In this document: piece after piece, positions 42,382 to 62,030 of the stretch
How the letters are laid out: each line of letters opens with the position of its first letter
How positions within the stretch are numbered: position 1 is the first letter of the stretch
Source: Verrucomicrobiota bacterium
GTDB taxonomy: Bacteria; Verrucomicrobiota; Verrucomicrobiia; Limisphaerales; DSYF01
Direction: 5' to 3'
Assembly (NCBI GenBank): GCA_041181065.1
Contig: JBEGQI010000022.1
Location: 2,863 to 66,862, forward strand
Length of the DNA: 64,000 bases
The notes under the pieces: model-generated
Database searches by the model: none
The model's input: only the letters and a program-made list of their open reading frames with translations
What the model was told of the DNA's origin: nothing
Program-made: the position numbers and the translations under genes

Positions 42382-42387
42382 GCTGCC

Positions 42388-44208: not shown

Positions 44209-46038
44209 ATGAACTCTTGCCGCAGAATTCTGCGTCTCTGTGCGTTAGTCGCCGTCAGCTTACTCGGGGCGATGGGTTGTGCCGCGCAGCCTGGCAAACC
44301 CGATGTTGCCGACTGCTATCTCATGGCCACGTTCCGCAACAACGGCGAGGACGGCCTGCACCTGCAGTGGAGCACGAACGCCTTCAATTGGCAGACGCTG
44401 GGTGATGATCGTTCCTACCTCGCGCCGACTGTGGGTGAGAGCAAGTTGATGCGCGATCCGTGTCTGATTCAAGGGCCCGACGGCACGTTCCATCTCGTGT
44501 GGACGACTTCTTGGACGGGCAAGACCATCGGCTACGCGAGCTCAAAAGATCTCGTGAAGTGGACCGAGCCGGTAGCCATTCCGGTGATGGCGGACGTGCC
44601 GAATTGCAAACTCTGTTGGGCGCCCGAGATCCGCTACGACGCGCGGAACAACAACTATCTCATCTACTGGTCGTCGAGTTTGACGGACGAGAAGCCGGAG
44701 TATTGGCGCACCTACGCCTGCACGACGACGGACTTCAAGACGTTCACGAAGGCGAAATTGTTCTTCGATCCCGGTCACAGCCAGATCGACGGGAGCATTC
44801 TCGAAGCGGACGGAAAATTCCTGCTGTTCTACAAACACTCGTGGCAGGGCAACCGTTTCGCGACGGCGGACAAGCTCGAAGGCCCTTACACCAACTCGTC
44901 GCCGATGTTTTCGGACGAAGGTTGGGAAGGCGGCTGGCCGATGCGCTTCAGCGATGGCTACCTCCTTTACCTCGACCACTTCCGCAGCCGCGACCGCATG
45001 GGGCTGTGGTATTCCAAAGATCTCACAAGCTGGAGCAACATCACGTCGCAGGCGACGTTCCCGCGCGGGACGTTGCATTGCAGCGTGCTCAAGGTGAAGC
45101 GCGCGTTGCTGGAGCCGTTGATCTCACAAGCCGAGCGCGATCGCGCCATCACGCCGCCCAAGCCCATCCTCGAAGGTCACACCGCCGATCCGCATGTGTC
45201 GGTGTTTGACGACACGTATTACATCTACCCGACCTCGGACAAAGACGAGTGGAAGACGACGGACTTTTCCGCGTGGTCGTCGAAGGATCTGGTTCACTGG
45301 AAGAACGAAGGCGTGATCCTCGACGTCACGAAGGATTTGAAATGGGCGAATCTCCGTGCGTGGGCGCCCGCCATGATCCGCCGCGACGGCAACTACTTCT
45401 TCTACTTCTGCGCAGACGCGAAGATTGGGGTCGCGACGAACAACGCGCCGACGGGCCGCTTCAAAGACGCGCTCGATCGTCCGCTCATCACGTCGAGCAA
45501 AGAGTATCCCGGGCAGGCGATCGATCCGTTCGCGATGATTGACGACGACGGCCAAGCTTACCTCTATTACGGTCAGGGAAATCTTTACGCCTACAAACTC
45601 AAGCCTGACATGATCACGCTCGACGGCCCGCCGGCGAAGTTGACGCCGCGCCGCTTCAACGAAGGCGTTTGGGTCTTCAAGCGCAACGGGCTTTACTACT
45701 TCATGTGGTCGGAGAACGACGCGCGCGATGTGCGTTATCAAGTCGCTTACGGCACATCGAAATCGCCGCTCGGACCGATTGAAGTGCCGCCCGACAACGT
45801 CGTGTTGCGCCAGCGAGGGCAAGCCGTCGGCACCGGGCATCATGCGGTCGTCAACGTGCCGGGCACGGACCGCTGGTATATCATCTATCACCGCCACGCG
45901 ATCCCGAACGGCAACGGCTACACGCGCCAGACCTGTATCACGCGGATGGAGTTCGCGCCCGACGGCCGCATCAAGAAAGCCGACCCGCTGGAAGTAACGT
46001 TCCCGGAGGGTTCAAAAGGCGAGCCGATCAAGCGTTAA
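44209..46038 (+). CDS. Secreted/lipoprotein enzyme with two tandem GH43-type five-bladed propeller domains
   Basis: Signal plus possible lipobox LLGAMGC. First domain: MRDPCLIQGPDGTFHLVWT...CWAPEI. Second domain: HTADPHVSVFDDTYYIYPTSD...AWAPAMIRRDGNYFFYF...AIDPFAMIDDDGQAYLYYG...NEGVWVFKRNGLYYFMWSEND. Confidence 0.85.
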   Translation: MNSCRRILRLCALVAVSLLGAMGCAAQPGKPDVADCYLMATFRNNGEDGLHLQWSTNAFNWQTLGDDRSYLAPTVGESKLMRDPCLIQGPDGTFHLVWTTSWTGKTIGYASSKDLVKWTEPVAIPVMADVPNCKLCWAPEIRYDARNNNYLIYWSSSLTDEKPEYWRTYACTTTDFKTFTKAKLFFDPGHSQIDGSILEADGKFLLFYKHSWQGNRFATADKLEGPYTNSSPMFSDEGWEGGWPMRFSDGYLLYLDHFRSRDRMGLWYSKDLTSWSNITSQATFPRGTLHCSVLKVKRALLEPLISQAERDRAITPPKPILEGHTADPHVSVFDDTYYIYPTSDKDEWKTTDFSAWSSKDLVHWKNEGVILDVTKDLKWANLRAWAPAMIRRDGNYFFYFCADAKIGVATNNAPTGRFKDALDRPLITSSKEYPGQAIDPFAMIDDDGQAYLYYGQGNLYAYKLKPDMITLDGPPAKLTPRRFNEGVWVFKRNGLYYFMWSENDARDVRYQVAYGTSKSPLGPIEVPPDNVVLRQRGQAVGTGHHAVVNVPGTDRWYIIYHRHAIPNGNGYTRQTCITRMEFAPDGRIKKADPLEVTFPEGSKGEPIKR

Positions 46039-47474
46039 TCGCCACCCCCGCCGCACCCCCCGCAACCGCCGCCACACCCTCCCCCGCAACTGCTCCCGCA
46101 CGAGCTGCCGCAGCTGCTGGACGAGCCGGGTGGAAGCAGTTCCTTTCGCAGCCCTTCCCAGGGCGTGCCATCCAACGCGGTCAGACCAAAAAGGCCGACA
46201 CCCATCGTGAAGAGCACGGGGTCTATCGCTGAGCTGCCCAACGAACCTTTGAGCGTGGCATGCTGGGCTTGCAGCCGGGCGAGGACGTCATCGCCCAAGT
46301 GCGAGCGGAGCGGTCGCCGCGCAAAGGCGATCAAGCTGATCACGAAAGAGATGACGCACAGGAAAACCAGAATGCTCACCGGCTTGTCGCGCTGGATTCC
46401 GATAATAATTTTGATGACGCCGATCACCACGGCACTGAGTGATATCAAGAGCGGCAGCGCAATCGCCTTGGCGGCCTGAGCATTGCTGACTACGAGGCCC
46501 AGCGCCTTCAATCGATCAGCGATATCACCCACCACGGTTTTCGCTGCGAGCCGGACCTCCCCGATCTTCTCACCGCCAGAGCGGGAAGCCGCTGCACAAA
46601 GCACCCGCTCCAACTCACTCGTCTTGCTCGGCGGCACGGAGCCGGAAACGACTTTCTTCTCGCCGACTTCCAGGCGCAGAACTTTTTGGCGGATCAGGTT
46701 CGTTAGCGCGGTGTTGACCGCGAGGATCCGCCCGCCGTTCAAGTAAGCCAAGTCGTAGGGGGAAAGATCAGCATCGTTGAAACCGTCTGCTTGGGAAGGC
46801 TGGCGCATGCGCGAGCGCAACCACAGGCCCAGACTGAAGCACGCCATAAACAAAATGCCGTAGAACCACAGGAAGTCCGGCCCCCGCCAGTTGAACGGAT
46901 TCGCGCCGTTCGCAAACATCGCTGCCGAGCAGCACAGCAACAGTGTCATCAGGCCAAGCGAGCCTGCGAGTTCGCGCTTGATTCGCCAGGTCGGTTTGCG
47001 GAAGACCCAGTGTTGTTCGCGATCTACGCGGACGAAATATTGCCGGATTTTCTGCCGCGCCTCAGGCGTGGGCCAGATGTCCATCGGAGGTTTTTCTCCA
47101 AAGAACTGTTCGTAGCTTTGTAGCGTGCGCGCATACCAATCGTTGAACTTCGCGTGTTCCTCCGCGCCGCCCTTGGTGGGTTGGTGATGGAACGGTTGCC
47201 GGAGAACTTCCGGGCAGAACACGCGCCAGTAGTTCTGCGAGTAGGTCAGATGCAGGTGCCACGCTTGATCGACGTCCTCGGAGGGCGAGACCGGATGTCC
47301 GGCAGCCACGGCGAGGAAGGCGAAGCGTTTGTATTCGTCAATGACGCGGCGGGCATAAGCCGGTGACCACTGGTTCTCTTTCGCCAGTCGGCTGGAGAAG
47401 GGGAAGGTGGAGTCCGGTGAGTCGAGGTCGAATTCATTCAACCGCTGCAAGAGTTCGGCGTGCTCAAGTTTCAT
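46035..47474 (-). CDS. TIGR04222-like membrane protein with an N-terminal glycine-rich-domain-protein (DUF1399-like) module and a C-terminal Cys/Gly tail
   Basis: N-terminus FPFSSRLAKENQWSPAYARRVIDEYKRF...VDQAWHLHLTYSQNYW, several TM helices, and tail GSSSSCGSSCGSSCGGGCGGGCGGCGGGGD. Its stop overlaps the GH43 gene stop on the other strand (TTAA at 46035-46038). Confidence 0.7.
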   Translation of the reverse strand: MKLEHAELLQRLNEFDLDSPDSTFPFSSRLAKENQWSPAYARRVIDEYKRFAFLAVAAGHPVSPSEDVDQAWHLHLTYSQNYWRVFCPEVLRQPFHHQPTKGGAEEHAKFNDWYARTLQSYEQFFGEKPPMDIWPTPEARQKIRQYFVRVDREQHWVFRKPTWRIKRELAGSLGLMTLLLCCSAAMFANGANPFNWRGPDFLWFYGILFMACFSLGLWLRSRMRQPSQADGFNDADLSPYDLAYLNGGRILAVNTALTNLIRQKVLRLEVGEKKVVSGSVPPSKTSELERVLCAAASRSGGEKIGEVRLAAKTVVGDIADRLKALGLVVSNAQAAKAIALPLLISLSAVVIGVIKIIIGIQRDKPVSILVFLCVISFVISLIAFARRPLRSHLGDDVLARLQAQHATLKGSLGSSAIDPVLFTMGVGLFGLTALDGTPWEGLRKELLPPGSSSSCGSSCGSSCGGGCGGGCGGCGGGGD

Positions 47475-49174: not shown

Positions 49175-50215
49175 TCAACGCTGTCCCTGCATCACCAGCT
49201 TGGGCTTACGATCCACAGTGAAGAGGCCCCAGTGCTTCTCGGCGCCGAGCGGGTCGGCATCGCCCTTCCAATCCTCGTCGAAAGCCTCGAAGAAGAAGGT
49301 GGTGATGTTCATCTTGGCGGCCCAGGCGTAGAGGTCGTGATAGTATCGCTTCTCCTTCTCGTCACTCGCCCGTTCGCCAAATTCCTTGGCGGTCGTCGCC
49401 CAGCCTGCTTCAGTAATGACGAGCTTTGCTTTGGGCAGCGTGTTCCGCACGGCTTGCAGATTTGCGATGGTGAACGGCATCGCTTCGTCGATGTCCTTGT
49501 TTTCCCAGACAGGGTAGGTGTGGACGGAAACGAAATCCAACTCCTGCGCCAAACGTTGGCCGTGCTTGGCCCACCAATCGTAGTTGTCGCACACGGTGAC
49601 GGGCTGGCGGACGGCGGCTTTGACTTCGCGCACGTAACCGATCACTGCGTCTTCGCTCACCATGTGGTCGTTCCAGCTCACGAGGGCTTCGTTGCCGACG
49701 GCGACGGCGCAAACGATGTTCGAATACTGGTTCGCGAGTCGGATGGCTTCACGCACTTCAGCGACGTTGCCGCGACGATTGGCCTCCAGCACTTCCGGCG
49801 ACATCGGTTTGAGCCAGGAGCAACCGGGGTTGTTCATCTCTGCGGCTAGCCACGCGCCGAGCATCACCTTGAAATTGAAGCCGTGCTTTTGGATGAGCTT
49901 CAACACCACTTCGGAATTCGTCTTCGCATCGTAGAGTCGCAGCAGGCGAAAATCCGTCTGGCGGGCGAGGAGGCTCAAGTCCTCCAAGATTTGCGCGTCG
50001 GTGGGATTTACCGCGCCATCGCCGCGATCGGGATGTTGGCCGGTGCGAAATCCCGAGTAACAAACTCCCCGCAACTGCCCTGTGAGCAAGTCGGACTTCT
50101 TCTGTTGCAATGGAACCAAGGCCGAGTTTGTGTCGGCAACAGCGTTGGCCACCTTGAACGCGGCCAACACTGAGCAAAGGGAAATCAGTTTTTGAACTCT
50201 CATGGCCAACCTCAT
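49175..50215 (-). CDS. Secreted GH17-like beta-1,3-glucanase/transglycosylase
   Basis: Signal peptide ...LISLCSVLAAFKVANA. GVCYS, VAVGNEAL (acid/base-like), LVITEAGWAT (nucleophile-like), EKHWGLF. The start overlaps the transporter stop (ATGA at 50212-50215). Confidence 0.72.
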   Translation of the reverse strand: MRLAMRVQKLISLCSVLAAFKVANAVADTNSALVPLQQKKSDLLTGQLRGVCYSGFRTGQHPDRGDGAVNPTDAQILEDLSLLARQTDFRLLRLYDAKTNSEVVLKLIQKHGFNFKVMLGAWLAAEMNNPGCSWLKPMSPEVLEANRRGNVAEVREAIRLANQYSNIVCAVAVGNEALVSWNDHMVSEDAVIGYVREVKAAVRQPVTVCDNYDWWAKHGQRLAQELDFVSVHTYPVWENKDIDEAMPFTIANLQAVRNTLPKAKLVITEAGWATTAKEFGERASDEKEKRYYHDLYAWAAKMNITTFFFEAFDEDWKGDADPLGAEKHWGLFTVDRKPKLVMQGQR

Positions 50216-51615
50216 GCGCTGGCCAGCGATTCTGCACCTGCGCTGGCGGTTGGTTCATTCTTTGCGGTGGTGGATGGCGTCGCTGCCCGGCGCTTCGTGA
50301 GATCTTCGCGCATGGTCGTGCAGATGTGTTCGTTCAAGCCGTAGAGGGTGAACGATCCCGCCAGCAGGATCAGCCCGACAGCGGGAATCAAGCTATTGAG
50401 TAGCAGAATGCCGCGGAGGGCTTCCGGTGTTTGTTCAGCATTGGGCACGTAGCCGAAGTGCGAGATGAGAAATCCGGCGAATGCCGCACCGATGCCCATC
50501 CCCGCCTTTTGCGCGCAGGTCGTGGCGGAGAACACCACGCCGGTCGTGCGCGTCTTGAATTTCCATTCCTGAAAATCCGCCGTGTCGGCTACCAGCGCCC
50601 AGAAGAGCGTCGCGTTGATGCCGGCACACATCATGCCGAGGATCTGGAACGCATAGATCGCCGCCGTTTGGTCGGGTTTCATCCAGTAGAACGGGATGGC
50701 CGTGAGCGCGACCATCAGCAGGCTCACGATGAACGCCCACTTCTTGCCCATCGCTTTCACCGCGAACCGCGTCAGCATCGCGCCGAACACCATGCTCAAA
50801 CCGCCGACGAGGAACCACGTCGCGATCTGCTCGCCACCCCAGTGCAGGTAGCTCTTGAGATAATAGATGCCCGCCGAGCCGCGCACGACGGCCAGCGTGA
50901 TGTTGATGATGCCGACGATGAACATCATGAGCCAATGCCGGTTGAGAAACAGCGTCTTTAAATCTTGCGTCAGTTTCGTGTGCTGATCAGCCGGCGGATG
51001 GATGCGTTCCTTGGTGGTCCAGAATGAGACGAGGAACAGTACGATGGCGATGGCGGCGAACAGGAGCACGGTGCGCTGCGCACCGACCTGCTGGTTGTCA
51101 TTCGCCAGCTTCACGATGAGCACCATGAAACTGGAGTTGGCGATGATGCCGCCGATCTGTGCGAGCGCCATGCGATAGGAGTTCAGGCTCGTGCGTTCCA
51201 GTGGATCGTCGGTCATCACGCCGGACAACGCGCCGTAGGGGATGTTGATGGCGGAGTAGAGCAGCATGAGCGCGTTGTAGGTGACCCAGGCCCAGACGAG
51301 CTTGCCGGCGGGGCTGAAGTTCGGCGTGGTGAACGCGAGCACAAAGACGACCGCGAGCGGCACGCAGAGCCACACGAGATACGGACGGAACCGGCCCCAC
51401 TTGGATTTGGTGCGGTCGGCCATGGCGCCGATGAAAAAGTCCACGATGCCATCCGAGCTGCGCGCAAAGAGCAGCATTGTGCCCGCGGCGGCGGCGGTGA
51501 TGCCGAAGATGTCCGTGTAGTAGAACATGATGAAGTTCATCATGAGCGCCCAGACGAAGTTGCTCGCGGTGTCGCCGAGGCCGTAACCGAACTTCTCGAC
51601 GAAGGACAATTTCAT
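50212..51615 (-). CDS. GPH-family (MelB-like) glycoside:cation symporter
   Basis: MKLSFVEKFGYGLGDTASNF...YYTDIFGI...DGIVDFFIGAMADRT.SKWGRFRPY are GPH hallmarks. 12 TM by eye. There is an alternative ATG at 51636. Confidence 0.85.
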   Translation of the reverse strand: MKLSFVEKFGYGLGDTASNFVWALMMNFIMFYYTDIFGITAAAAGTMLLFARSSDGIVDFFIGAMADRTKSKWGRFRPYLVWLCVPLAVVFVLAFTTPNFSPAGKLVWAWVTYNALMLLYSAINIPYGALSGVMTDDPLERTSLNSYRMALAQIGGIIANSSFMVLIVKLANDNQQVGAQRTVLLFAAIAIVLFLVSFWTTKERIHPPADQHTKLTQDLKTLFLNRHWLMMFIVGIINITLAVVRGSAGIYYLKSYLHWGGEQIATWFLVGGLSMVFGAMLTRFAVKAMGKKWAFIVSLLMVALTAIPFYWMKPDQTAAIYAFQILGMMCAGINATLFWALVADTADFQEWKFKTRTTGVVFSATTCAQKAGMGIGAAFAGFLISHFGYVPNAEQTPEALRGILLLNSLIPAVGLILLAGSFTLYGLNEHICTTMREDLTKRRAATPSTTAKNEPTASAGAESLASA

Positions 51616-51640
51616 GGATGAGGTTTCGCTTCGCATAAAT

Positions 51641-54600
51641 CTATTGGGTTCGTTCCCACAGCGCGCTCGCCGGGATGGTGACGCTCAGCCGCGTGATCTC
51701 GCCGGTCCGTGTGAAGATTGCCGTGCTGTCGTCAGCACTGAGGCGCGCGCCGCGCACGGTGCGCGTTTGGCCGTCGCGCGATGTCACGGTGATGGTGAAT
51801 TCATTGCCGATGACATAACTCACCGGCACCTGACAACATGTGAAAGCCAAGCTGTGTGCGGGAAGATTCAAAGTTTGAGCGGCGCCATTCACATCGACAT
51901 ATGTGAATGCCTGCGGCTTGGATGAAAACTCGGAGCGACACAACAGCGTCGGTGCAAAGACGAGTTGCCCGCGCTCGACGCGCACCCCGAGTTCGGCGCG
52001 GCGCGTGAGGATTTCTTCCTTCACCTGACCGGTCATGCCGGGCTGTTGCGCGCCGAGATGACGGGGTGTGTGCGAGTAAGGATCGGTCGGGAACGCGCCA
52101 TAGACTTCCGGCGACTTCGTGAAGCCGAGGCCGCGGCGGATGTCGTAGTAGGCGTCACGCAAGCCGGCGATGACTTCTGCCGGCGCGCCGCTTGCGACCG
52201 CGGCGCGATGACATTCCTCGGCGGCGAGCAGCAGCTTGGCGATCATGTGCCAGTAGATGCTCCCGAGCCCCTCGAACGCGAACATCGCGCCGCTGCGTCC
52301 GGTGAATTCGCTGTGTTGAAAGACGCCTTCCCAGATTTGCAGCAATACGGTGCGTTCGGCTTCTGATGTTGCGCCCGTGGGCAACTTGGCCAGGCGCGCT
52401 TCGAGTGTGGCGGCGTTCGTGAGGTCGCCGTTGAAGTGCGCTGCGCCGCTGGCGTCCACGGTGATTACGGTGCGGTCGCCTTGCTTCACGAGCGTGGCGA
52501 TGGCCGGGACTTTGGACTGCCAGTCCGCCGGCCATTGATTGCGTTCCAAGAACGGCGTCACCAATCGGTCGGGATAGAGCAGATAACTGTGCTGGTCGGC
52601 GCGGAAGAGATCGCTCTTGCGCAACGCGCGGAACAGCGCCAGCGCTTCTGTCGGCGACAGCAACCCGCTGCTCAGCACCGCGACCTGTCCTTCCAACATG
52701 AGATTCAGATGGCGAACGCGAGCCGCACTGCCCGTCAGCTCCAGCAAGTTGTAACTGTGGAATGTGCCGTCCGCGCGGCGATTGGCCTTGAGCGTTTCCT
52801 CGACGGCGTGCGTCGCTGCTGCGAGCCAACGCCGGATCTCAGCCAACGCCACCGGGCGCGGCTCGCCGAGTTTGCCTTGATACACTGCCGCGCGATGATT
52901 TTCCCCGGCGCCGCCCAGCGCGGTGAGAGTTTTCAGCCGCACTACGTCGTCGCTTGTGTTGAAGTTGCCGAGTGCTGCGCAAATCTCTTGTCCGAACTTT
53001 TCAACGGCGGGGGACAACCAAACGGTTTCGCCGCTCGTTGCGAGCACGCGTTCCAAGAAGCCGAGGTAGCGGCGCAGGTAACCGACCGTGACCATGGAAA
53101 GTCCCCAGCCGGCTAGCGCGTTGTTGGCGTCGTTCCACTCGGGTCGCTGCGTGTTGAGCCAGATGCCGCCGCCGGGAACGAGGTTGCTCAACTTGGCGAG
53201 CAGCGGAACGAGCAGCTTTTCGCCGAGGGAGACGAGCCGGACTTCGCCATTGTCATCAGCGAGCAACTTCGCGTCGTTGCCGATCTCTGCGGCGCGCGCG
53301 AGCAGTTCTTTGTGCAGTGTGGTGTTGAAGCGAATGCCGTGGCGCGGATTGCCGAGCAGTTCCGCGAACGATTTGATCTCGTAAGGAACGCGCGCGTAGG
53401 CGAAGCGGCGTTGGTTCAGCTCCTGCGCGAGACGGCTAGGCGCGTAATCTTCCAGCGACTCCAGCAATCGCAGCAGATAGATGATTTGGTGATCGCCCCA
53501 GTAGCCGATGTGGCTCCACGGGTCGTGCGGGTCTTCGACTTCCCAATCAATCCCGGCGCGCGTGATGCGATAGGGATTGTAGCCGTCGGCGGTTGAGGCG
53601 TTCAGGAACACCGCGATCATGGATTCGAGGCAGAGCGGATAACTCTGCGCGAGGCTCTCCCAGTTTTGGAAGATGTCGCGCCAGTTGCCTTGATAATCGT
53701 AGATCGTGCGCCCGGCTTCGTCGCGGGTGCGGATGGAAAAGCGGTTCCACGGCCGGCTCGGATCGCCGTGCCGACGGCTGAACGTGATGGGCAGATACTC
53801 ACGCACGAGCCGGACGAGATGCGCGTCGCCGGTCGCTTCAGCAGACGTGTGCGCCGCGGCGAGATCCAATTGCGCGGGCAACGATTTCAACCACGCCGCG
53901 TGACGGGCGTAAATGTGCTTGTTGCGCACAGATAAAAACGCCGCGAGGTCGGCGACCGGAAAACGATAGCCATCCGGCAGCGTGCCGCCGCGCATGCAGT
54001 TGAACAGGACGTTGGCGAAGTGATGTGGGCTCGCGGGGTCTTGCGTCTGTTGCAACCCATCGGCGGCGGCGATGCGGGCGCGCAAGGCATCACGCGTGGC
54101 GATGACATCAGCTCGCAGCGCCTCGGCCAGAGCATCAGGTGCAGCGAGTTGCTGACGAAGTTGGATGAGCGCGGAGTGGTCGAGTCCAGTGTCGGCGACG
54201 GCAAACCATTCGTGCGCGCCGTCTGGCGAAATTTCCGTGGCGGCGCAGACCAGATGCGCTCCGAACACGCCGCGCACTTCGGTCTCGGGTGTGACGGCTT
54301 GGCCATGCCGAAACGCGGCGATCTGACGGTCCGACAACAGCACCACGGGATTCTGGTGACCATACGACCACGCGGCGGCGACGCGGAGCATTTCGCACGG
54401 TTCGGCGCGGTCGGTGATGCCAGAGTTGAGCGTGTAGATGCCGAGACCGTTGGTGCATTCGTGCCGCATGTAGGCGGCGGCGAGGTAGCTGTAACGCTCG
54501 AATAAATCCTGACCGACGCCTGCGGGCAGCAGCTGATGAAAGCCGTCGAGATAGCGCACGCGCACTGGTTGTGAACCGAGGTTGCGCAGTTCGCAGAAGC

Positions 54601-55111
54601 GAACGAGGCCGAACTTGTCCGACGAGGTCAGCGTCCACGTGATCGCCAGTTGCAAATCTTCGTTGATCTCCTCAAAGACGGCGCTGGTGCCGAGCTGGCT
54701 TTTGAACAGGTGGCGGCGGAGGCGATACAAACCGGCGTCGCCGAGCCACGGCTCCCACAAAGCCGAGCCGCCATCGCGTTCGACGAGCAGGTGCGTGCGC
54801 GCACCGGTGCCGCAGGGTTGCGCAAGAATCTTGTCCGCCGTGCGATAGGGAAAGAGCGCGTGGTCCGCATCGCCGCGGCCGGAGGTGAACGCGCCGTTGC
54901 TGCCGAGAAACGTCCATACATTGCCGTCGCTGACGATGCTCATCAGGAACGGCGGCATCGCGTTGACGTCGGTGATGCCGACGAACGGTTCGCCGCGGAT
55001 GACACGTGACGTGGCGCCGGCGTGGGCGGGTAATTCGTGCTGCGGGGTGTGGCCGATGAAAACGCGTTCCCCCGAGTGCCGCGACGCGTCCTGGTTCGAT
55101 GGTCCAGACAT
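51641..55111 (-). CDS. 1156-aa cytoplasmic protein, candidate GH94/GH149/GH161-type glycoside (beta-glucan) phosphorylase
   Basis: No signal peptide. Motifs reminiscent of the GH94 clan catalytic region: RPEWNDANNALAG (D/E-W-N-D), GSIYWHMIAKLLL, PYSHTP...QPGMTGQVKE. Size and neighbours (GH17, GPH symporter, GH-A) fit a beta-1,3-glucan phosphorylase. The CDS is confident; the function is an inference. Confidence 0.5.
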   Translation of the reverse strand: MSGPSNQDASRHSGERVFIGHTPQHELPAHAGATSRVIRGEPFVGITDVNAMPPFLMSIVSDGNVWTFLGSNGAFTSGRGDADHALFPYRTADKILAQPCGTGARTHLLVERDGGSALWEPWLGDAGLYRLRRHLFKSQLGTSAVFEEINEDLQLAITWTLTSSDKFGLVRFCELRNLGSQPVRVRYLDGFHQLLPAGVGQDLFERYSYLAAAYMRHECTNGLGIYTLNSGITDRAEPCEMLRVAAAWSYGHQNPVVLLSDRQIAAFRHGQAVTPETEVRGVFGAHLVCAATEISPDGAHEWFAVADTGLDHSALIQLRQQLAAPDALAEALRADVIATRDALRARIAAADGLQQTQDPASPHHFANVLFNCMRGGTLPDGYRFPVADLAAFLSVRNKHIYARHAAWLKSLPAQLDLAAAHTSAEATGDAHLVRLVREYLPITFSRRHGDPSRPWNRFSIRTRDEAGRTIYDYQGNWRDIFQNWESLAQSYPLCLESMIAVFLNASTADGYNPYRITRAGIDWEVEDPHDPWSHIGYWGDHQIIYLLRLLESLEDYAPSRLAQELNQRRFAYARVPYEIKSFAELLGNPRHGIRFNTTLHKELLARAAEIGNDAKLLADDNGEVRLVSLGEKLLVPLLAKLSNLVPGGGIWLNTQRPEWNDANNALAGWGLSMVTVGYLRRYLGFLERVLATSGETVWLSPAVEKFGQEICAALGNFNTSDDVVRLKTLTALGGAGENHRAAVYQGKLGEPRPVALAEIRRWLAAATHAVEETLKANRRADGTFHSYNLLELTGSAARVRHLNLMLEGQVAVLSSGLLSPTEALALFRALRKSDLFRADQHSYLLYPDRLVTPFLERNQWPADWQSKVPAIATLVKQGDRTVITVDASGAAHFNGDLTNAATLEARLAKLPTGATSEAERTVLLQIWEGVFQHSEFTGRSGAMFAFEGLGSIYWHMIAKLLLAAEECHRAAVASGAPAEVIAGLRDAYYDIRRGLGFTKSPEVYGAFPTDPYSHTPRHLGAQQPGMTGQVKEEILTRRAELGVRVERGQLVFAPTLLCRSEFSSKPQAFTYVDVNGAAQTLNLPAHSLAFTCCQVPVSYVIGNEFTITVTSRDGQTRTVRGARLSADDSTAIFTRTGEITRLSVTIPASALWERTQ

Positions 55112-55119
55112 GGTCTGCG

Positions 55120-56448
55120 CTATTTCGAGCGGCTGGCAGTTTCGGGCATTGTGGGCCGCGTCTGCGTGGTGGAGACCGTCACCAGGAACGGCACGTTGCC
55201 AACGCAGGCGCCCGTGTCGTTGTGGACGTAGGCGAACACGCGGTAAGCCCCGGCCGTTTCGGGAGCAACCAGTTCACAACCTTTTTCGTCGCCGTGTTTG
55301 ATGACGGAGCGCAATTCGGGCAGCTGCTGTTCCTCGCGACCGGCGCTGAGCGTCTTGGTCTGCTCGGGTTGCACGATCCAGCGCACGCGCAATGGCCGTT
55401 GATCCGAGTTCACTGCGATGAGCTGTATCTTGAGCGGCGCGCCGGGGTTGAGTTGGGTCGAGCCTTCCGCGCGGAGCTGCTTGATGACGGGACAGGTGGC
55501 TTGCGGCGGTTTGCCGGACCAGAGTTCCGTCATCGTGTCCACGGCGTTCACCTTGGTGCCATCGGGCAGGAACATGCCGAACCATGTCGCGGTGCGTTCC
55601 TGCTTGTTGCCCCAAAGGAAAGCGTAGGAGCCGAGGCACAGCGGCTTCTGCTGGATGGAGCCGACATACGCGCGGCGATACGACTCGGCTTTCTCGGAGC
55701 TGGTCGGCTCGAACGGCGCATCCCACGAGGTCTTGCCCACTTCCCAGAAACCGGCCGGGCCGAATTCCGTGATGATGTAAGGCTTGGTTGGTTTCTGCGC
55801 TGTGTAACGCGCCGCAATGCTGGACGCACCGGCGTAACTGTTGATGCCCACGATGTCCACGTCGGGGCAATATTGGTTCACGGACTGGACGCGTTTGCCG
55901 CCGAGTTCGACCATGACGGTCATGACGGGATGATTGGTGTCCAGCGATTTGGCGAGCTTCGCGGCTTCGTTCACGTGCTTCCAGATCACGGGACGATCGC
56001 CGTCGCCGTAACCTTCCATTTCGTTGCCGATGCCCCACATCAACACCGCGGGATGATCCTTGTAACGCAACACCGCCTGGCGGACGAGTTCCAGTTGCTC
56101 CTTGAGCATCTCCGGCTTGTCGTAACTGAACCCGCCTTCGTCGCCTTCGTGCCGGAGCCAGATGCCAACGGTCACGGTCAGCCCATGCTTGTGAGCCTCA
56201 TCCAACAAGGGCGCAAGGTTGTCCACGCCCCAAGTGCGGACGGAGTTGGCGCCGGCTGCTGCGAGCAGGTCGAGCCGCGTCGTGCCGCCTGCGCCCTTGA
56301 CGAAGAACGGTTTGCCCTCGCGACGAAGGCTCCACGCATCGCCCTTGCGCACGAGTTCGACTTTTGCCGCCCAGCCTGCGGTCGGACCAACCACGCCTGC
56401 CAGGGCGAGCAAAGCCGAGGCTAATATGAGTGACCTTGTGAATTTCAT
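55120..56448 (-). CDS. Secreted clan GH-A TIM-barrel glycoside hydrolase with a C-terminal beta-sandwich
   Basis: The ATG at 56448 gives MKFTRSLILASALLALAGVVGPTAGWA. NSVRTWG, LMWGIGNEMEG (acid/base-like), YIITEFG (nucleophile-like). Confidence 0.72.
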   Translation of the reverse strand: MKFTRSLILASALLALAGVVGPTAGWAAKVELVRKGDAWSLRREGKPFFVKGAGGTTRLDLLAAAGANSVRTWGVDNLAPLLDEAHKHGLTVTVGIWLRHEGDEGGFSYDKPEMLKEQLELVRQAVLRYKDHPAVLMWGIGNEMEGYGDGDRPVIWKHVNEAAKLAKSLDTNHPVMTVMVELGGKRVQSVNQYCPDVDIVGINSYAGASSIAARYTAQKPTKPYIITEFGPAGFWEVGKTSWDAPFEPTSSEKAESYRRAYVGSIQQKPLCLGSYAFLWGNKQERTATWFGMFLPDGTKVNAVDTMTELWSGKPPQATCPVIKQLRAEGSTQLNPGAPLKIQLIAVNSDQRPLRVRWIVQPEQTKTLSAGREEQQLPELRSVIKHGDEKGCELVAPETAGAYRVFAYVHNDTGACVGNVPFLVTVSTTQTRPTMPETASRSK

Positions 56449-56655
56449 AAGCGCGTCAGTTTGATGCGGGACGCGGAACGGTCCAGGCCCGCACATTCAA
56501 CGGGGAAGCCCGAAAAGGCGCTGACCCTGGACTCGGTGACCTGAATGGTCAATTGCTTGGTGACCGACATAAAATTCTATTTGCCTGCCGTCCGCTCTGC
56601 CCTGGCCCATGCCCGGGCCGCTGCTGTCAAAGGTTACTTGGGGGGAACCCGGCTG

Positions 56656-58089
56656 CTACAGTCCCCGAGCAGTCCGTGCGTGGAGTTTCCTTCTCAACAC
56701 CACCACCCAGCCCAGCAGCCCCGCCGCCAGGATCACGAGACCGACAATCATCGAAGTGCCCTCGGGCATCTTCACTTGAGACGGAGCCTGGACGAGGGTC
56801 ACGTCCTTGGGAGACCGCAGCAGCAGGCGGAAGGAGCTTGCGCGCCATTCATCGCCAGCCTGCCATTGGTTGCCGCGCTCGATGACGCACACGCCGCGCA
56901 CAACCACTTCGCTGCCCTCCTTCAAATCCGCGAGGTTGCCATAGATGAAGCCCTGGGGGATGAACGCCTGGAAAGTGAGGCCGCCTGATTCCAACAGGAA
57001 AAAGCGATTGAGGCCGCGCTGGACATTGCCTAGCACCTTGGCTGGCAACTGGACCAGCCGGCAGTCATGGGCGCCGGTCAGGATTTCATTCACGTCCACG
57101 GAAGGAATTTCCGGCTCTTTGCCCGTGCCTATCTTCCGGACAACGGCATCCTCCAATACCGGCGTATATTCACCGCGGGCCGGAAACCCGACCACTTCAA
57201 CCTTGGACCCAAGCTCGGGCAGTTCGCGTTGAGCGGTCTGGCAATGCAGGCCTCCTTCGTCATCCTGGAGGAACAGCGCTTTGCCTGGCTCGGCGAAAAC
57301 CACCGTGCCGGTCATCTTAATCCGCCCCGTCACTTTGGCCGCCGGTGCGAAGCGCAACAGGGCGTTGATCTTCTGCGCGGGCAGTTCAAATGGTTTCATA
57401 CTCGCGGCCTGCTCGACCACGAGTCCGTCCCTATTCGGAACCAGAAGTTGCACGCCGAACAACTGGCGTTGGTGATTAAATAGGGTGGCGCACACCCCGC
57501 GAACAAGGACAGTGGCCTCGACGAGGTCATCGGGTTGAGCCACCGGCAGTTCTTTCGCGTAAACGCTGAAACGCTCACTGCCCTTGGCAAAATCCAGCAC
57601 ATGATAACCGGTCACCCGCTCATAGCGGACCGCGCGCACGCGGTCGCGGAACTCGACCCATTGGCTGTCCTGCGTGCCGCTGACCATTTCCTCCAAGTCC
57701 ACCGCCTTGGGCGACGGCAGCGTTCCCTGGCCGACGACCCTGACGGACGCAGGCCTCACGACCGGGGCGAATTCTCCCGGCGCCGTGGTGCCTTCAAGCT
57801 CGACCAACTGCCCGGACTTAAGCGGCGGCGTGTTGGTGCTCTCCAGAAGATAGATGCCCGCCGTGTCATCCTGCACGAAGCGCGAATACAAGCCGTCATC
57901 GTAAAACGTCACCACGCCACGCAGCTTGACGGACAGTCCGCGGGCGGCGTCCTCGGCGGACAGGCTCCGGACCCCGGCGACGGACGTGATGACCTTGGCG
58001 GGGCTTTGGGCAGCGGCCGGACTGGCGAGGAGCCCCCCCAGGAACAGGACAAGAACCACCTTTCGTATGCTGGACAGAGTGTATGGCAT
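56656..58089 (-). CDS. Sensor-domain-only paralogue of the histidine kinase at 62027..64000 (signal peptide + about 410-aa periplasmic domain + 1 TM + 12-aa tail)
   Basis: The ATG at 58089 gives MPYTLSSIRKVVLVLFLGGLLASPAAAQS. It is colinear with the kinase sensor region by eye over its whole length (LRGVVTF..LYSRF.QD.TAGIYL, VRGVC...FNHQRQLF, LFLQD..G, GEYTPVL.DA, HDC.L, VTGVC/VRGVC...WQAG.EWRA.SF). It ends ...IVGLVILAAGLLGWVVVLRRKLHARTARGL with no kinase module. Confidence 0.7.
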   Translation of the reverse strand: MPYTLSSIRKVVLVLFLGGLLASPAAAQSPAKVITSVAGVRSLSAEDAARGLSVKLRGVVTFYDDGLYSRFVQDDTAGIYLLESTNTPPLKSGQLVELEGTTAPGEFAPVVRPASVRVVGQGTLPSPKAVDLEEMVSGTQDSQWVEFRDRVRAVRYERVTGYHVLDFAKGSERFSVYAKELPVAQPDDLVEATVLVRGVCATLFNHQRQLFGVQLLVPNRDGLVVEQAASMKPFELPAQKINALLRFAPAAKVTGRIKMTGTVVFAEPGKALFLQDDEGGLHCQTAQRELPELGSKVEVVGFPARGEYTPVLEDAVVRKIGTGKEPEIPSVDVNEILTGAHDCRLVQLPAKVLGNVQRGLNRFFLLESGGLTFQAFIPQGFIYGNLADLKEGSEVVVRGVCVIERGNQWQAGDEWRASSFRLLLRSPKDVTLVQAPSQVKMPEGTSMIVGLVILAAGLLGWVVVLRRKLHARTARGL

Positions 58090-58186
58090 AGCCTTTGTGA
58101 GGTTTATTTGCTCCATTTTTGAGAACGCACGCTTTCCAGCCATGCGTCTCTTTTGATCCGACTAACGACGTATCGAGGTTCCGGGA

Positions 58187-58972
58187 CTAGAACGAATTCA
58201 CGGCGAACACGTCCTGCTTGTTCTCGAACAAATCCTTCCAGCTCCAAGACTCCACGTGCCCGTCACACGCGGCGAAGGCGGCACGTCCGCCGTGCCGGCA
58301 CGCAGCCTGTTTGCTGGGCGTGAGGGTGTTCCAACCCGTGCCAGGCTTCGGCTTGAACACTGCAATCTCGGTGTAATAACTGGTCGGGCGCGAAGTGGAC
58401 GGCGGATAGCTGATGGCGGATCCGTTCTTCACGGTGCCGGGAACGCCCACATCGCCGATGAGCCAGATCTGGCTTGTGCGCTGGATGGTGCTCATCTTGC
58501 GCGGCCCCTGATAACCGGTAGAGCTGAGCGCGTAGCGGACAATTCCGTTGGCCGAGTTCTGCTGGTCTTCGAGCGGGCCGTAACCCTCGCAGGGGTTGCC
58601 GTTGAAATAGCTCACCACATCCGGCGCGATGTCCTGTTCGCGCACGGCCGAGCAACGCCAGACGTTGTTGGAGGTGGTGCTCTTGGTGATGTAATTGCCC
58701 TCATCAAGAACGTTGAACCACCAGTTCGTGCCATAGGCGCCGTAACGCCCGTTGTTCAGGATGGGCAGGTAATCTTCGTTGTCATTCACGTGCATTGTGA
58801 TGGCCAGCGCAATCTGCTTGTTGTTGCTGACGCAGGCGATCGCCTTCGCCTTTTCTTTGGCCTTGGAGAGGGCGGGCAACAGCATGGCGGCCAAAATCGC
58901 GATGATCGCAATGACAACCAGCAGCTCAATCAGCGTGAATCCCTGACGACTTTTGGAGGCGGACATTTTCAT
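58187..58972 (-). CDS. DUF1559-type protein with a prepilin N-terminal cleavage/methylation domain (type II secretion pseudopilin-like, H-X9-DG)
   Basis: [32 protein letters not shown] at the N-terminus and a C-terminal [14 protein letters not shown] (H-X9-DG). Confidence 0.9.
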
Positions 58973-59049: not shown

Positions 59050-61278
59050 TTACTGAATGGACAGGCGGTAGAACCGCTTGCTGCCACTGGTCGGATCGCT
59101 GATGACGATGTTCGAACCCGTTCCGTTGGTTGTGGTCAGCGTGAGCCACGAGGCGTCGGGCAGGTTGTTCTTGTATTGGACCGTGTAAACTTTGCCGAGC
59201 TGGCTGGCAAAGGCGAGGTTGATGTTGCTGCCGCCGGCGCTGGCGTTGATGCTCGTCGGCAGCGTGCCCGCATTGCCGATGATGACATTGCCGAACGGCG
59301 CCACGTCCGTGACCCAGACGTTGGGCCCGACCGTCTCGAAGCCATACTGCACGTGACGCGCCGGGTCGTTGATCGTATTCAGGTTGATGCTGAATGCGCC
59401 GGGCGTCAGCGGCACCGTCGCCGAGTTGAACGACGAGTAGTCAGGCGCGTAGTCTTTGATGAACGCAACGCTGGTCCAGCCATTGCCAAGCGCGTTGGTG
59501 TTGGAGGCGCTTACCAAGGTGTTCGAGAGCACGTTGCCGGAGAAGATCAGCTTGCGCCCGGGCAGTGAACCGATTTCCACATACATGCTGGCATCCATGG
59601 TCTTGTTGCCGACGGAGCCGGGCCCGCCGCTGGGGGTATACCAGTAGGAGTTGGGGTCGCCGATCACGTTGGGCGAGAGCACCAGACCGCTGCCGTTAAA
59701 GACCGCGCACAAGTCTGCCGTTCCCCAGCCGCTGCCGAACTGATAACCGCCGCCATCCTGCGGCTTGTTGAACACATTCATGAAGCCGAGCCAGCTTGAC
59801 GAGTGGTTCACAACAACATTTGTGGGGCTGACATCCAACGAGTTGATTTGCACCACACCGTAATTGTTTACGTCCGTCTGCCACACATTCGGGCCACGGG
59901 TGACAAATCCATATTGGACGTGCCGGGCAGGGTCGGGAATCGTGGCCAAGCTAACGGAGAACGGAACGCCGCTGGTCAGGGCGACAAACGAATCGACGGA
60001 AGAGGAATAGTCCGGCGCAAAATCCTTGACGAAGGCGTAATTAGTCCAGCCGTTGCCGATGCCGTTGGTGCTGCCGGGATTGAGCGTGATGTCGAGCGTG
60101 TTGGTTTTGCAGGAGCCCTTGAAGACCACCACGTTGCCGCTAACCGAACCGTCCGGGACCTGCACGTAATAGCTAGCTTCCATTTCTTTGAATCCCACCG
60201 CGCCGACGAAGTTGGACGGATTGGAAAGCAGCGGCTCAACGGTGTAATCGAGCCAGAACGTGCTGCTGTCACCTGGCGCGGTGCCGGGCTTCAACGTCAA
60301 CACCGACGACGGGCCAACGCCAGAGAATTCAGCGGTCAGCGCGCCCGCGCCCCACGGGCTTCCAAACACATATCCATTTCCGTTCTGCGGCGTGTTCCGC
60401 ACATTCATGAAGGCAGACCACGCGGCGAAAGGATCCACCACGAAAGTGTTCGTGGGAGCCGCGCCACCTGTGACGGTCACGTTCACGACGGATGACGTAA
60501 CCGTGCCGCCATTGTCATCCATGGCCACAACTTTCAAGGCCGCCGCACCGAGTGCCGCGCCTGTGACATTGAGGCTGAATGGCAACGATGTATCGCTGCC
60601 AATCAACGTCGCACCGCGGTAGAAATCCACATTCGTGACCGAACCGGGAACCACCCCGGTGCTGACCACGATGAGGAAGTTGGTGCTCACGGTGCTCGAA
60701 TCGGCCGGGCTGGTGATTTGCGCGAACAGCGGCGTGGAGGCGGGGGCCACCACACCCAGATTATCGAAACCGACCGTGGATCCGGGACCCCACAGCGGCA
60801 CGATCTTGAGACCGGTCGCACTCAGCGAGACAGTGTAGTTGAACGAATAAGTCGCCCAGCCATTCGTCGTCCAGCTTCCGGGTCGCATGTCGCCGCTGCT
60901 GGAGATCAAGCCGCTCGGCCCCCAAGATTCAATTTTAAGCCCGCCGGTGTTGGTGCCAGCCAGGGTGATCATGTCCTGTAGAAAAGTGTAGGTGCCGCCG
61001 GGAACAATGCCCAATGACCCAAGCGGCAGCGGCGTGGTATCGCCGGCAACCAACACGGCCCATTGGGTCGAGTTCGTGCCATCAATGACGGCATACTGCC
61101 CGGGATTACCTCCGGAGGCGGGATAACTGAAGACAAACCCGCCGCCCTGGGCCTCCGCCCAGTCGGCCGTGGGTCCGCCCAAGGCAAAATTCCCGTTGGG
61201 GAATAGATTGGTGACATTTTGAGCCTGACCGATGCCAGCCGCGGTAAGGGCGGCAAGGAGTGTGAGTAGTTTCTTCAT
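59050..61278 (-). CDS. Giant secreted protein: CBM-like jelly roll + Ig-like + 2 x about 190-aa duplicated module + the C-terminal FYR-type domain
   Basis: Signal peptide MKKLLTLLAALTAAGIGQA. The N-terminal domain ends in GFDNLGVV. The duplicated modules share W..FMNV.N.PQ.G.GY.FGS.WG...L.A.F, NG.GNGWT..AF.KD.APDYSS and DPARHVQYGF...GPNVW.TDV. The C-terminus reads ...VYTVQYKNNLPDASWLTL...KRFYRLSIQ. Confidence 0.75.
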   Translation of the reverse strand: MKKLLTLLAALTAAGIGQAQNVTNLFPNGNFALGGPTADWAEAQGGGFVFSYPASGGNPGQYAVIDGTNSTQWAVLVAGDTTPLPLGSLGIVPGGTYTFLQDMITLAGTNTGGLKIESWGPSGLISSSGDMRPGSWTTNGWATYSFNYTVSLSATGLKIVPLWGPGSTVGFDNLGVVAPASTPLFAQITSPADSSTVSTNFLIVVSTGVVPGSVTNVDFYRGATLIGSDTSLPFSLNVTGAALGAAALKVVAMDDNGGTVTSSVVNVTVTGGAAPTNTFVVDPFAAWSAFMNVRNTPQNGNGYVFGSPWGAGALTAEFSGVGPSSVLTLKPGTAPGDSSTFWLDYTVEPLLSNPSNFVGAVGFKEMEASYYVQVPDGSVSGNVVVFKGSCKTNTLDITLNPGSTNGIGNGWTNYAFVKDFAPDYSSSVDSFVALTSGVPFSVSLATIPDPARHVQYGFVTRGPNVWQTDVNNYGVVQINSLDVSPTNVVVNHSSSWLGFMNVFNKPQDGGGYQFGSGWGTADLCAVFNGSGLVLSPNVIGDPNSYWYTPSGGPGSVGNKTMDASMYVEIGSLPGRKLIFSGNVLSNTLVSASNTNALGNGWTSVAFIKDYAPDYSSFNSATVPLTPGAFSINLNTINDPARHVQYGFETVGPNVWVTDVAPFGNVIIGNAGTLPTSINASAGGSNINLAFASQLGKVYTVQYKNNLPDASWLTLTTTNGTGSNIVISDPTSGSKRFYRLSIQ

Positions 61279-61403: not shown

Positions 61404-62030
61404 TTACACCGCCGACCGAACCTTCAACACCGCCTCCGTGCGCGAATGCACGTGGAGCTTCTGGTAGATGTGCTTGAGATGAAAACGCACCGCCGCCAGC
61501 GTGACCGTCAGGCGGTCGGCGATTTCTTTGTTCGACAATCCGTGCACAACGAGCTCGAGCACCTCGCGTTCGCGTGCCGTGAGCTGATCCACTTCGGTCG
61601 TCGCGGTCTTCTGTTCGCGGAAATAACCGATGACCTTCCGGGCTATCTCGCCGCTCATCGCGCCGCCGCCCTGCTGCACTTCGCGCATCGCGTTTAAGAC
61701 GTCCTCCGGCGCCGAGCGTTTGAGCAGATAACCCGACGCGCCCGCGCGCAACGCACGGAAGATGCGGTCCGGATCTTCATACACCGTCACCATGATGGCG
61801 TGCACGGAAGGCAGCAGCTCCTTCAATTTGCCCACGCATTCCACGCCGGACATGTTCGGCAGTTGGATGTCCATGAGCACGATCTCCGGCGCAAGCTTGG
61901 GCAGCACGCGCAACGCTTCTTCCGCCGTCGGGCACGTGGCGATGCAGCGGAAGTCCGACGACATGTTCACGATGGTTTCCAACCCTTCGCGAGTCGTCTT
62001 GTTGTCTTCAACGATGGCAACCTTGGTCAT
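61404..62030 (-). CDS. Response regulator, REC + LuxR/NarL-type HTH
   Basis: The ATG at 62030 (MTKVAIVEDNKTTREGL...) overlaps the kinase stop (ATGA at 62027-62030). VLMDIQLPNMSG, then a C-terminal LTAREREVLELVVHGLSNKEIADRLTVTLAAVRFHLKHIYQKLHV. Confidence 0.9.
   Translation of the reverse strand: MTKVAIVEDNKTTREGLETIVNMSSDFRCIATCPTAEEALRVLPKLAPEIVLMDIQLPNMSGVECVGKLKELLPSVHAIMVTVYEDPDRIFRALRAGASGYLLKRSAPEDVLNAMREVQQGGGAMSGEIARKVIGYFREQKTATTEVDQLTAREREVLELVVHGLSNKEIADRLTVTLAAVRFHLKHIYQKLHVHSRTEAVLKVRSAV

Follow-up and report, generated by a model that had tools for sequence, protein, structure and literature searches.

The 64,000-nucleotide stretch of Verrucomicrobiota contig JBEGQI010000022.1 analyzed here (hereafter the window; approximately 60% GC throughout) carries four consecutive and intact open reading frames (ORFs) on its minus strand, which we read as the core of a locus for the catabolic utilization of beta-1,3-glucan. 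In the direction of transcription they are predicted to specify a GH158 beta-1,3-glucanase (55120–56448), a GH149 beta-1,3-glucan (oligosaccharide) phosphorylase (51641–55111), a sugar:cation symporter of the GPH (MFS_2) type (50212–51636) and a GH17 glycoside hydrolase (49175–50215). Based upon sequence comparison and upon analogy with characterized systems, we put the probability of this reading at roughly 0.85. An earlier note on the same DNA had proposed a laminarin-type operon of four tightly linked minus-strand genes centered on a giant phosphorylase-like protein, and the ORF calls reproduce the coordinates which it gave.

The 1156-aa product of the second gene was identified through the NCBIfam equivalog model NF058639 [GH149_beta_1_3], which it matches with 1379.1 bits (the cut-off being 1150), residues 38–1146 aligning with positions 12–1133 of the 1134 in the model. 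Its best match among solved structures is Pro_7066 [6e-283, 944.6 bits, PDB 6HQ6; also 6HQ8]. This sequence alignment is single and unbroken (residues 38–1149 against 46–1172) and spans the domain layout of GH149, the domain limits being those of PMC6771811. The structures of GH161 and GH94 phosphorylases, by comparison, gave merely 65–68 bits. A Pfam search of this protein returned no family, since Pfam has no model for GH149; the blank is a gap in the library and no argument against a phosphorylase, and it is the NCBIfam and PDB matches which are decisive. What the earlier note had described as a giant phosphorylase-like protein with blocks resembling the GH94 clan can on these alignments be named as a GH149 (clan GH-Q) beta-1,3-glucan phosphorylase.

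The active site of Pro_7066 comprises a WND loop (W651, N652 and the catalytic D653), an RD motif (R470/D471) and the phosphate-binding histidine H959 (PMC6771811). The corresponding residues in the window protein are W659-N660-D661, R478-D479 and H955, so that both the RD motif, which serves the sugar 1-phosphate, and the loop holding the catalytic Asp are conserved. The E-W-N-D motif to which attention had been drawn earlier, RPEWNDANNALAG, is present and is the catalytic loop containing W659-N660-D661. The proposal had been made to hang on membership of a phosphorylase family and on the presence of the catalytic residues; both were found, and the alignment to a characterized GH149 enzyme shows the catalytic Asp and the phosphate-binding residues in place. 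The surface oligosaccharide site of Pro_7066 is partly kept: Y993 is retained, E990 and E994 are replaced by Asp and Y841 by His. Partial loss of this site is usual in the more distant GH149 members (PMC6771811).

Hydropathy analysis revealed no hydrophobic segment at the N-terminus of the 1156-aa protein, in line with the earlier remark that it lacks a signal peptide, and the enzyme is therefore presumed to be cytoplasmic, like Pro_7066. Characterized GH149 enzymes (shown for EgP1 and Pro_7066) phosphorolyze beta-1,3-gluco-oligosaccharides whose degree of polymerization (DP) is 2 or more to alpha-glucose-1-phosphate and, finally, glucose. Because GH149, unlike GH161, acts down to DP2, the operon would need no beta-glucosidase.

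The gene upstream of the phosphorylase had been assigned to a clan GH-A hydrolase, an assignment which can now be narrowed to a predicted GH158 beta-1,3-glucanase. The ORF reaches to 56496, giving a 458-aa product. It matches GH158(Pro) [5.3e-93, PDB 9ORO] over residues 45–436, 43% of the 385 aligned residues being identical, and BuGH158 [2.5e-64, PDB 6PAL] over residues 48–439. Both matches cross the TIM barrel and the C-terminal immunoglobulin (Ig)-like domain; Pfam recognizes a GH2_C-like TIM barrel alone. Numbered along the 458-aa ORF, the acid/base E159 (GIGNEME) and the nucleophile E244 (ITEFGP) correspond to E143 and E229 of GH158(Pro), and the catalytic Glu pair is thus kept. The window enzyme accordingly has the TIM barrel, the Ig-like domain, the two glutamates and the beta-1,3-glucanase family in common with both characterized enzymes, and is nearer to the processive, laminaribiose-producing GH158(Pro) than to BuGH158, which comes from a beta-1,3-glucan polysaccharide utilization locus (PUL) of Bacteroides uniformis. 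It differs in its partner, which is a phosphorylase here and a GH3 beta-glucosidase in the known GH158 system.

GH158(Pro) is processive and releases mainly laminaribiose, its tunnel being shut by a salt bridge between R104 and D382; it is impeded by beta-1,6 branches and also cleaves some mixed-linkage oligosaccharides (PMC13195107). We aligned the window enzyme with 19 further GH158 sequences, namely 18 environmental ones encoded beside a GH149 gene and GH158(Pro) itself. The two bridge positions are occupied by R and D in 17 of these 19, by D and R in the nearest relative (locus L005, 5334–6578), and by E120 and R387 (again counted along the 458-aa ORF) in the window enzyme. In the non-processive BuGH158 the two residues are K and S. 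E120 and R387 both sit in loops which bear insertions and deletions, and the alignment is uncertain at these points. Nonetheless the pair resembles a compensatory exchange of charges, and could, with due regard to those loops, suit a conserved gate; the window GH158 may retain the processive tunnel by way of a charge-swapped bridge. If true, this would be a case in which natural compensation speaks for the gating mechanism already published, and the E/R swap provides a ready test case for that model.

The fourth gene had been called GH17-like, and the call holds. Its 346-aa product exceeds the cut-off of Pfam PF00332 (34 bits against 28.2), residues 262–339 alone being matched. The alignment to the Formosa laminarinase FbGH17A [4.3e-27, PDB 6FCG] consists of two stretches which jointly cover most of the protein; the second-best structure is a fungal GH17 beta-1,3-glucanosyltransferase [4e-16, PDB 4WTP]. 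In GH17 enzymes the catalytic Glu pair lies at the ends of strands beta-4 and beta-7. The acid/base E176 (VGNEAL) and nucleophile E269 (ITEAGW) of the window protein align with VGNEAM and IGETGW of 6FCG, and with the equivalent residues of 4WTP. Assignment to a family with another substrate, which the earlier note had named as a point that would count against the operon, was not what these searches gave. In a Verrucomicrobiota metagenome-assembled genome (MAG) the same protein, at 100% identity, is NCBI RLY20_209, where it is annotated as a "hypothetical protein."

Both hydrolases had been described as secreted. Each indeed begins with a Sec-type signal peptide, in which a hydrophobic core comes after a positively charged n-region and ahead of an A-x-A cleavage motif: MKFTRSLILASALLALAGVVGPTAGWA, followed by AK, in GH158 when read from the ATG at 56448, and MRLAMRVQKLISLCSVLAAFKVANA, followed by VAD, in GH17. 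Hydropathy shows a single hydrophobic segment in either protein. Export is the part of that description which stands; the enzymes may work in the periplasm or outside the cell.

The product of the third gene (474 aa from the ATG at 51636) scores 360.2 bits against TIGR00792 [gph], for which the cut-off is 231.35, and 309 bits against Pfam MFS_2, covering model positions 1–426 of 427. A crude hydropathy scan displayed nine strong hydrophobic peaks. The earlier identification as a GPH sugar:cation symporter is therefore confirmed at the level of the family, and laminaribiose and laminari-oligosaccharides are presumed to be what the protein imports.

The spacings between the four genes were also borne out. 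There are 8 bp between GH158 and GH149, 4 or 25 bp between GH149 and GPH depending on whether the latter starts at 51636 or at the alternative ATG at 51615, and a 4-bp ATGA overlap between GPH and GH17. In the public record of the identical contig, GPH is given a start at 51615 and GH17 one at its second ATG, 50203, in which case the ATGA overlap becomes a short gap. Under either choice of starts the genes are packed so closely that no room is left for independent promoters; no terminator-like sites were found in the intergenic gaps of the unit, and the four genes are probably cotranscribed. The closest non-coding sequence of any appreciable length consists of the 160–207 bp lying 5' of GH158, the sole such gap on that side, and the region 56449–56655 (minus strand) is presumed to contain the promoter/operator of the four-gene unit. 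Upstream of GH158 no sigma-70-like promoter was found in the scan of the minus strand, and an Rfam scan of the whole window gave no match, and hence neither a riboswitch nor a leader RNA. The region does contain, at 56535–56565 (minus strand), two exact copies of GGTCACC 24 bp apart with TGACC between them. With 11 occurrences in the window against 7.6 expected, GGTCACC shows no enrichment, and none was seen upstream of the L005 orthologue. The functional unit as a whole probably spans 49175 to the end of the window. Horizontal transfer of the operon was considered and rejected: its GC content (0.60–0.63) is the same as the window's, and base composition therefore gives no sign of such an event.

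For comparison we took 80 GH149 loci of GTDB species representatives, which span Verrucomicrobiota, Planctomycetota, Chloroflexota, Bacteroidota, Gammaproteobacteria, Acidobacteriota and others, and searched them with the window proteins; the counts refer to the flanks fetched. A GH17 gene is present in 50 of the loci, a GH158 gene in 14, and either of the two in 61. Nine of the 14 GH158 genes lie directly upstream of GH149 and on the same strand. Since each of the four window genes independently belongs to a family or transporter type which recurs in beta-1,3-glucan loci, their grouping is not due to chance.

The nearest locus, L005 from a Verrucomicrobiota MAG, has GH158, GH149 and the GPH gene which follows it in the same order as in the window (76, 72 and 87% identity, respectively), after which the contig ends. 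In a Limisphaerales MAG (L042, 7287–14596) the order is GH158-GPH-GH149-GH17; here GH17 is 71% identical to that of the window, but GH149 only 46% and GPH 40%. In L060 (2368–7380) it is the GPH that is close (86% identical) while GH149 is again at 46%; this MAG is labeled Bifidobacteriaceae, a label which looks unlikely. The discordant similarities in L042 and L060 suggest, at the level of sequence identity, that modules have been shuffled between at least two GH149 lineages.

Clusters of this general kind are known. The 2018 paper which founded GH149 described as "type II" those in which GH149 is found with GH17, an MFS transporter (pfam13347), a kinase/response regulator pair, GH16 and a TonB-dependent receptor, proposed a degradative role for them (cleavage outside the cell, import, phosphorolysis) and named mainly Proteobacteria and Bacteroidetes as their hosts (PMC5827456). 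The logic put forward in the earlier note, that is, extracellular trimming, import and energy-saving phosphorolysis, is the published model for the GH149 family. GH149+GH17+MFS_2 clusters, described since 2018, are routinely used as laminarin markers. With the Alteromonadales type II clusters (PMC5827456) the window shares the GH149 catalytic apparatus, GH17, the MFS_2 transporter, a kinase/response regulator pair and the proposed logic, that is, four of the six type II components. The layout is different: the window locus has neither the TonB-dependent receptor nor GH16, and GH158 fills the slot of the endo-glucanase; the GH17 has a signal peptide, whereas that of type II is described as cytoplasmic; the regulators are of the HisKA_3/LuxR type with a tandem-OB sensor rather than pfam06580 and COG3279; and the host phylum is Verrucomicrobiota. 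The locus would function like a type II cluster and adds one example to a cluster type already published; it is not a new system. The example comes from a phylum in which GH149-centered beta-1,3-glucan loci have been little discussed.

The "variant 1" laminarin PUL of Bacteroidota (Formosa, Polaribacter, Muricauda) has the composition GH149-GH17-GH30-MFS(-GH17)-GH17 together with SusCD (PMC6246565, PMC10108472, PMC13188888). Such PULs are induced by laminarin in Formosa and strongly expressed in algal blooms and sediments. In both settings GH17 genes and an MFS_2 transporter come immediately after GH149, but the window has neither SusC/SusD nor GH30, and a single GH17. The latter belongs to the subgroup which stands last in variant 1 PULs, where it has no signal peptide and shows 45–47% identity to the window enzyme; the GH17 of the variant 1 MFS-GH17 fusion is of another subtype, with 26% identity. 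The operons of Paenibacillus and Acholeplasma containing GH94 laminaribiose phosphorylase or GH161 (PMC6484121) resemble the window in coupling the uptake of beta-1,3-gluco-oligosaccharides to cytoplasmic phosphorolysis by clan GH-Q enzymes. They employ ABC transporters instead of a GPH symporter, and for the disaccharide they often require a beta-glucosidase or another phosphorylase in addition.

The pathway which we propose would begin with the exported GH158 depolymerizing beta-1,3-glucan outside the cytoplasm, probably in a processive manner and mainly to laminaribiose if GH158(Pro) is a guide, while the exported GH17 would add cleavage or trimming. Laminaribiose and short laminari-oligosaccharides would then be brought in by the GPH symporter on a cation gradient, and the cytoplasmic GH149 would phosphorolyze them to alpha-glucose-1-phosphate and finally glucose, with a saving of one ATP per glucosyl unit. 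The adjacent HisKA_3 kinase and LuxR-type regulator, to judge from context, probably control expression; by the same token the CBM-like, prepilin-like and tandem-OB proteins encoded next to them may be conserved accessory parts for capture or sensing.

Several points weigh against this reading. There is no TonB-dependent or SusCD transporter in the locus by which a polymer would reach a periplasmic enzyme. The gating salt bridge of GH158 is not conserved as such, being charge-swapped in loops of uncertain alignment. The specificity of the GPH symporter is drawn from its genomic context. The GH17 falls in an uncharacterized subgroup amid enzymes as varied as endo-glucanases, an exo-glucosidase and a transglycosylase. 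The alternative starts would abolish the ATGA overlap, and the promoter and terminator scan yielded nothing beyond shuffled expectation.

Which glucan is consumed is the point on which the proposal is most easily modified. Of the term "laminarin-type" in the earlier note the beta-1,3-glucan part stands, but laminarin claims more than the evidence allows: the locus lacks a debranching enzyme of GH30, and beta-1,6 branches hinder the closest characterized GH158. "Beta-1,3-glucan" is the safer term because of the lack of GH30 and GH16 and the branch-sensitive type of GH158. One might go further and suppose that the natural substrate is not algal laminarin at all, but either a beta-1,3-glucan that is linear or almost so (callose, curdlan, paramylon or the glucan of fungal walls) or a beta-1,3/1,4-glucan of mixed linkage. 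The absence of a GH30 beta-1,6-glucosidase and of a GH16, which are found alongside GH149 in marine laminarin PULs, would then be accounted for; the activity of GH158(Pro) on mixed-linkage oligosaccharides would fit, and the source is an uncultured Verrucomicrobiota MAG whose habitat is not known. We consider such a substrate possible but rather unlikely, as laminarin is itself sparsely branched, GH149/GH17 loci have repeatedly been linked to laminarin by experiment, and related Verrucomicrobiota loci add GH16 and sometimes GH30.

A second modification concerns the GH17 enzyme. GH149 loci hold at least four types of GH17: a 429-aa endo type (FbGH17A, MlGH17A), an MFS-fused type (FbGH17B, exo), a type of approximately 300 aa encoded after the MFS gene, and a type of 312–337 aa placed last. 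The window protein belongs to the last-placed type, with 45–47% identity to stand-alone GH17s of that size (L023, 19620–20558; L061, 14247–15260; L076, 18693–19673). No characterized member was identified for the subgroup to which these three belong, and the name "exo-beta-1,3-glucanase" in use at JGI is a generic automatic label. The remaining GH17s of GH149 loci are functionally mixed, including the endo-acting FbGH17A and MlGH17A, the exo-acting FbGH17B and the transglycosylase MlGH17B, which sits after the MFS gene in Muricauda.

It is conceivable, given this mixture, that the pathway is as we propose except that the GH17 is a transglycosylase or remodeling enzyme like MlGH17B. GH158 alone would then make the products that are imported, GH17 would reshape oligosaccharides, for instance by branching or elongation, and the trimming step assigned to it would be wrong. 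The second-best structural match is, as noted, a glucanosyltransferase, and the window enzyme is short (346 aa as against 429 aa for the endo type), which calls to mind the statement in the MlGH17A paper that bacterial and fungal transglycosylases are shorter than endo-glucanases. In sequence, however, it is closer to the endo FbGH17A type (31%, 134 bits) than to the MFS-fused and post-MFS types (approximately 26%, 81–94 bits), and a secreted transglycosylase would have no obvious role in a catabolic operon. We judge a remodeling GH17 to be improbable.

The signal peptide of this GH17 deserves comment. Within the subgroup one is found in the window, in L042 (13490–14596), in L074 from a member of Terriglobia and, in lipoprotein-type form, in the gammaproteobacterial L020; members from the GH149 loci of Bacteroidota and Alteromonadales (including L061 and L023) lack it. 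This distribution suggests that one type of GH17 may act in different compartments across phyla. A cytoplasmic location of the window enzyme, such as is described for type II clusters and as in the Bacteroidota orthologues, was rejected in view of the signal-like N-terminus, which recurs in L042, L074 and L020. An MFS_2+GH17 fusion of 800 aa, the form known from Flavobacteriia, exists in L023, and its linker is rich in positive charges, so the fused GH17 is suggested to be cytoplasmic; the window GH17 has a signal peptide instead. The notion that GPH and GH17 of the window represent a split version of the fusion (FbGH17B) was rejected since the fused GH17 is 26% identical to it, against 45–47% for the stand-alone enzymes of the same loci, and since the topology implied for the two is not alike.

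That the locus is anabolic, with GH149 working in the synthetic direction to make a reserve of beta-1,3-glucan out of glucose-1-phosphate and the hydrolases remodeling it, is hardly credible: GH149 phosphorolysis is reversible in vitro and cytoplasmic GH17 transglycosylases have been conjectured to act in storage, but the signal peptides put both hydrolases in another compartment than GH149, the importer, the secreted CBM-like protein and the two-component system form a typical catabolic layout, and published GH149 clusters are read as degradative and substrate-induced.

Beyond the presumed promoter region the minus strand continues with genes which we regard, together with the catabolic operon, as part of one locus. 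First comes a 495-aa membrane protein (56656–58143) which shares 44% identity, over 432 aa, with the N-terminal extracytoplasmic part of the histidine kinase encoded farther upstream, and is thus a kinase-less paralogue of its sensor part. It has no Pfam family, and members of its family give weak OB-type and DUF matches. The AlphaFold2 (AF2) model (pLDDT 83.6, pTM 0.72) displays an N-terminal anchor, tandem OB folds and a C-terminal transmembrane helix; from the strand pattern of the model there may be about four OB barrels. Its Foldseek neighbors are the OB arrays of RPA, HIN and CST. The family comprises hundreds of Verrucomicrobiota "hypothetical proteins" without a Pfam family, and adjoins GH158-GH149 in L005, L081, L084, L085 and L086.

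Next is a 261-aa prepilin-type protein (58187–58972) possessing an N-methylation motif and an H-X9-DG motif, with matches to Pfam N_methyl (38 bits) and TIGR02532 and a weak one to DUF1559. Homologs occupy the same place in L005, L081, L082, L084, L085 and L086. A search of titles and abstracts for DUF1559 prepilin-like proteins and polysaccharide use returned nothing addressing the subject. This prepilin-like family is abundant in bacteria of the Planctomycetota-Verrucomicrobiota-Chlamydiota (PVC) group, and almost no literature tying it to glycan use was found.

The 742-aa protein which follows (59050–61278) carries a signal peptide and a Pfam Big_7 domain, and is a candidate glucan-binding protein. 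Its AF2 model (pLDDT 81.5) is all beta-sandwich, the modeled architecture being an N-terminal module like carbohydrate-binding module (CBM) families 4 and 22, a Big_7 Ig domain, a sandwich domain that occurs twice as a repeat and, at the C-terminus, a further sandwich; the Foldseek matches include CBM22 tandems, CBM4 and the Bacteroides SGBP-B. Pfam CBM_4_9 is recognized in two of 33 aligned relatives and in the larger gene at that position in L084. Homologs lie near GH158/GH149 in L005, L031, L042, L079, L081, L082 and L086. In the public record the protein is RLY20_215, again a "hypothetical protein."

The last two genes form the two-component system: a LuxR/NarL-type response regulator (61404–62030; Pfam Response_reg and GerE), whose ATG overlaps the stop codon of the kinase gene (ATGA), and a histidine kinase (62027–64000) whose N-terminus is cut by the window end. 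The kinase matches Pfam HisKA_3 and HATPase_c, with a weak OB match to tRNA_anti-codon in its tandem-OB extracytoplasmic sensor. For the 742-aa, prepilin-like and tandem-OB families no characterized member was met with in the searches made.

Five further Verrucomicrobiota contigs (L081, L082, L084, L085 and L086) were chosen through homologs of the 742-aa or the 495-aa protein. All five contain a prepilin-like gene, an MFS transporter (Sugar_tr or MFS_2), a GH158-like gene of approximately 450 aa and a gene of approximately 1150 aa without a Pfam family, the size of GH149; in L086 the contig ends inside the last. Most also have a Big_7/CBM/Ig protein and a tandem-OB protein, GH16 or GH30 is often present, and a HisKA_3 kinase with its regulator occurs in two (L084 and L085). 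A SusC/SusD pair was found in none of the five. No gene between 44209 and 64000 of the window belongs to a TonB-dependent receptor or SusD family, and the locus is thus not a PUL in the canonical Bacteroidota sense.

Judged by gene order, the 742-aa, prepilin-like and tandem-OB proteins and the two-component system belong to the same conserved locus as the four genes. The earlier note had placed likely regulators and a CBM-like surface protein beside the operon, and the conserved synteny with GH158-GH149 in other Verrucomicrobiota lends this remark support. As a tentative extension, which we offer with little confidence, the operon might be the enzymatic half of a "Verrucomicrobiota-type" beta-glucan locus which dispenses with SusCD. 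The tandem-OB array, outside the cytoplasm, would serve as the sensor of glucan or oligosaccharide, present both on the HisKA_3 kinase and on its kinase-less, membrane-anchored paralogue, and the CBM-like and prepilin-like proteins would substitute for SusC/D as an apparatus for capture at the surface and uptake.

Together with the GH158 salt-bridge swap, this uncharacterized Verrucomicrobiota accessory module is the most noteworthy aspect of the locus, since it supplies a recurrent gene set with which to ask how PVC bacteria sense and take up glucan without SusCD. There is value for annotation as well. The source record calls both the GH17 and the 742-aa protein "hypothetical," and with neither a GH149 nor a GH158 model in Pfam, pipelines relying on Pfam alone miss the phosphorylase entirely.

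Some neighboring genes were also recorded. Three of the five additional contigs (L081, 1–1568; L082, 1–1575; L086, 1–231) contain a protein of approximately 1150–1200 aa in which TIG, fn3, cytochrome c and DHOR domains are combined; a large GH16-malectin-Big_7 protein comes next, and then the same glucan module. Both genes are absent from the window locus. In the window, 3 kb downstream of the operon, lies a gene for a secreted GH43 enzyme of two modules, an arabinosidase BT_3657-like N-terminal one and GH43 (44209–46038, plus strand). A gene for a 479-aa membrane protein with a Cys/Gly-rich tail, SSCGSSCGSSCGGGCGGGCGGCGGGGD, converges on it (46035–47474, minus strand). A second two-component system, composed of a CHASE-domain histidine kinase and a LuxR-type response regulator, is located approximately 6 kb from the operon (40630–43005, plus strand).

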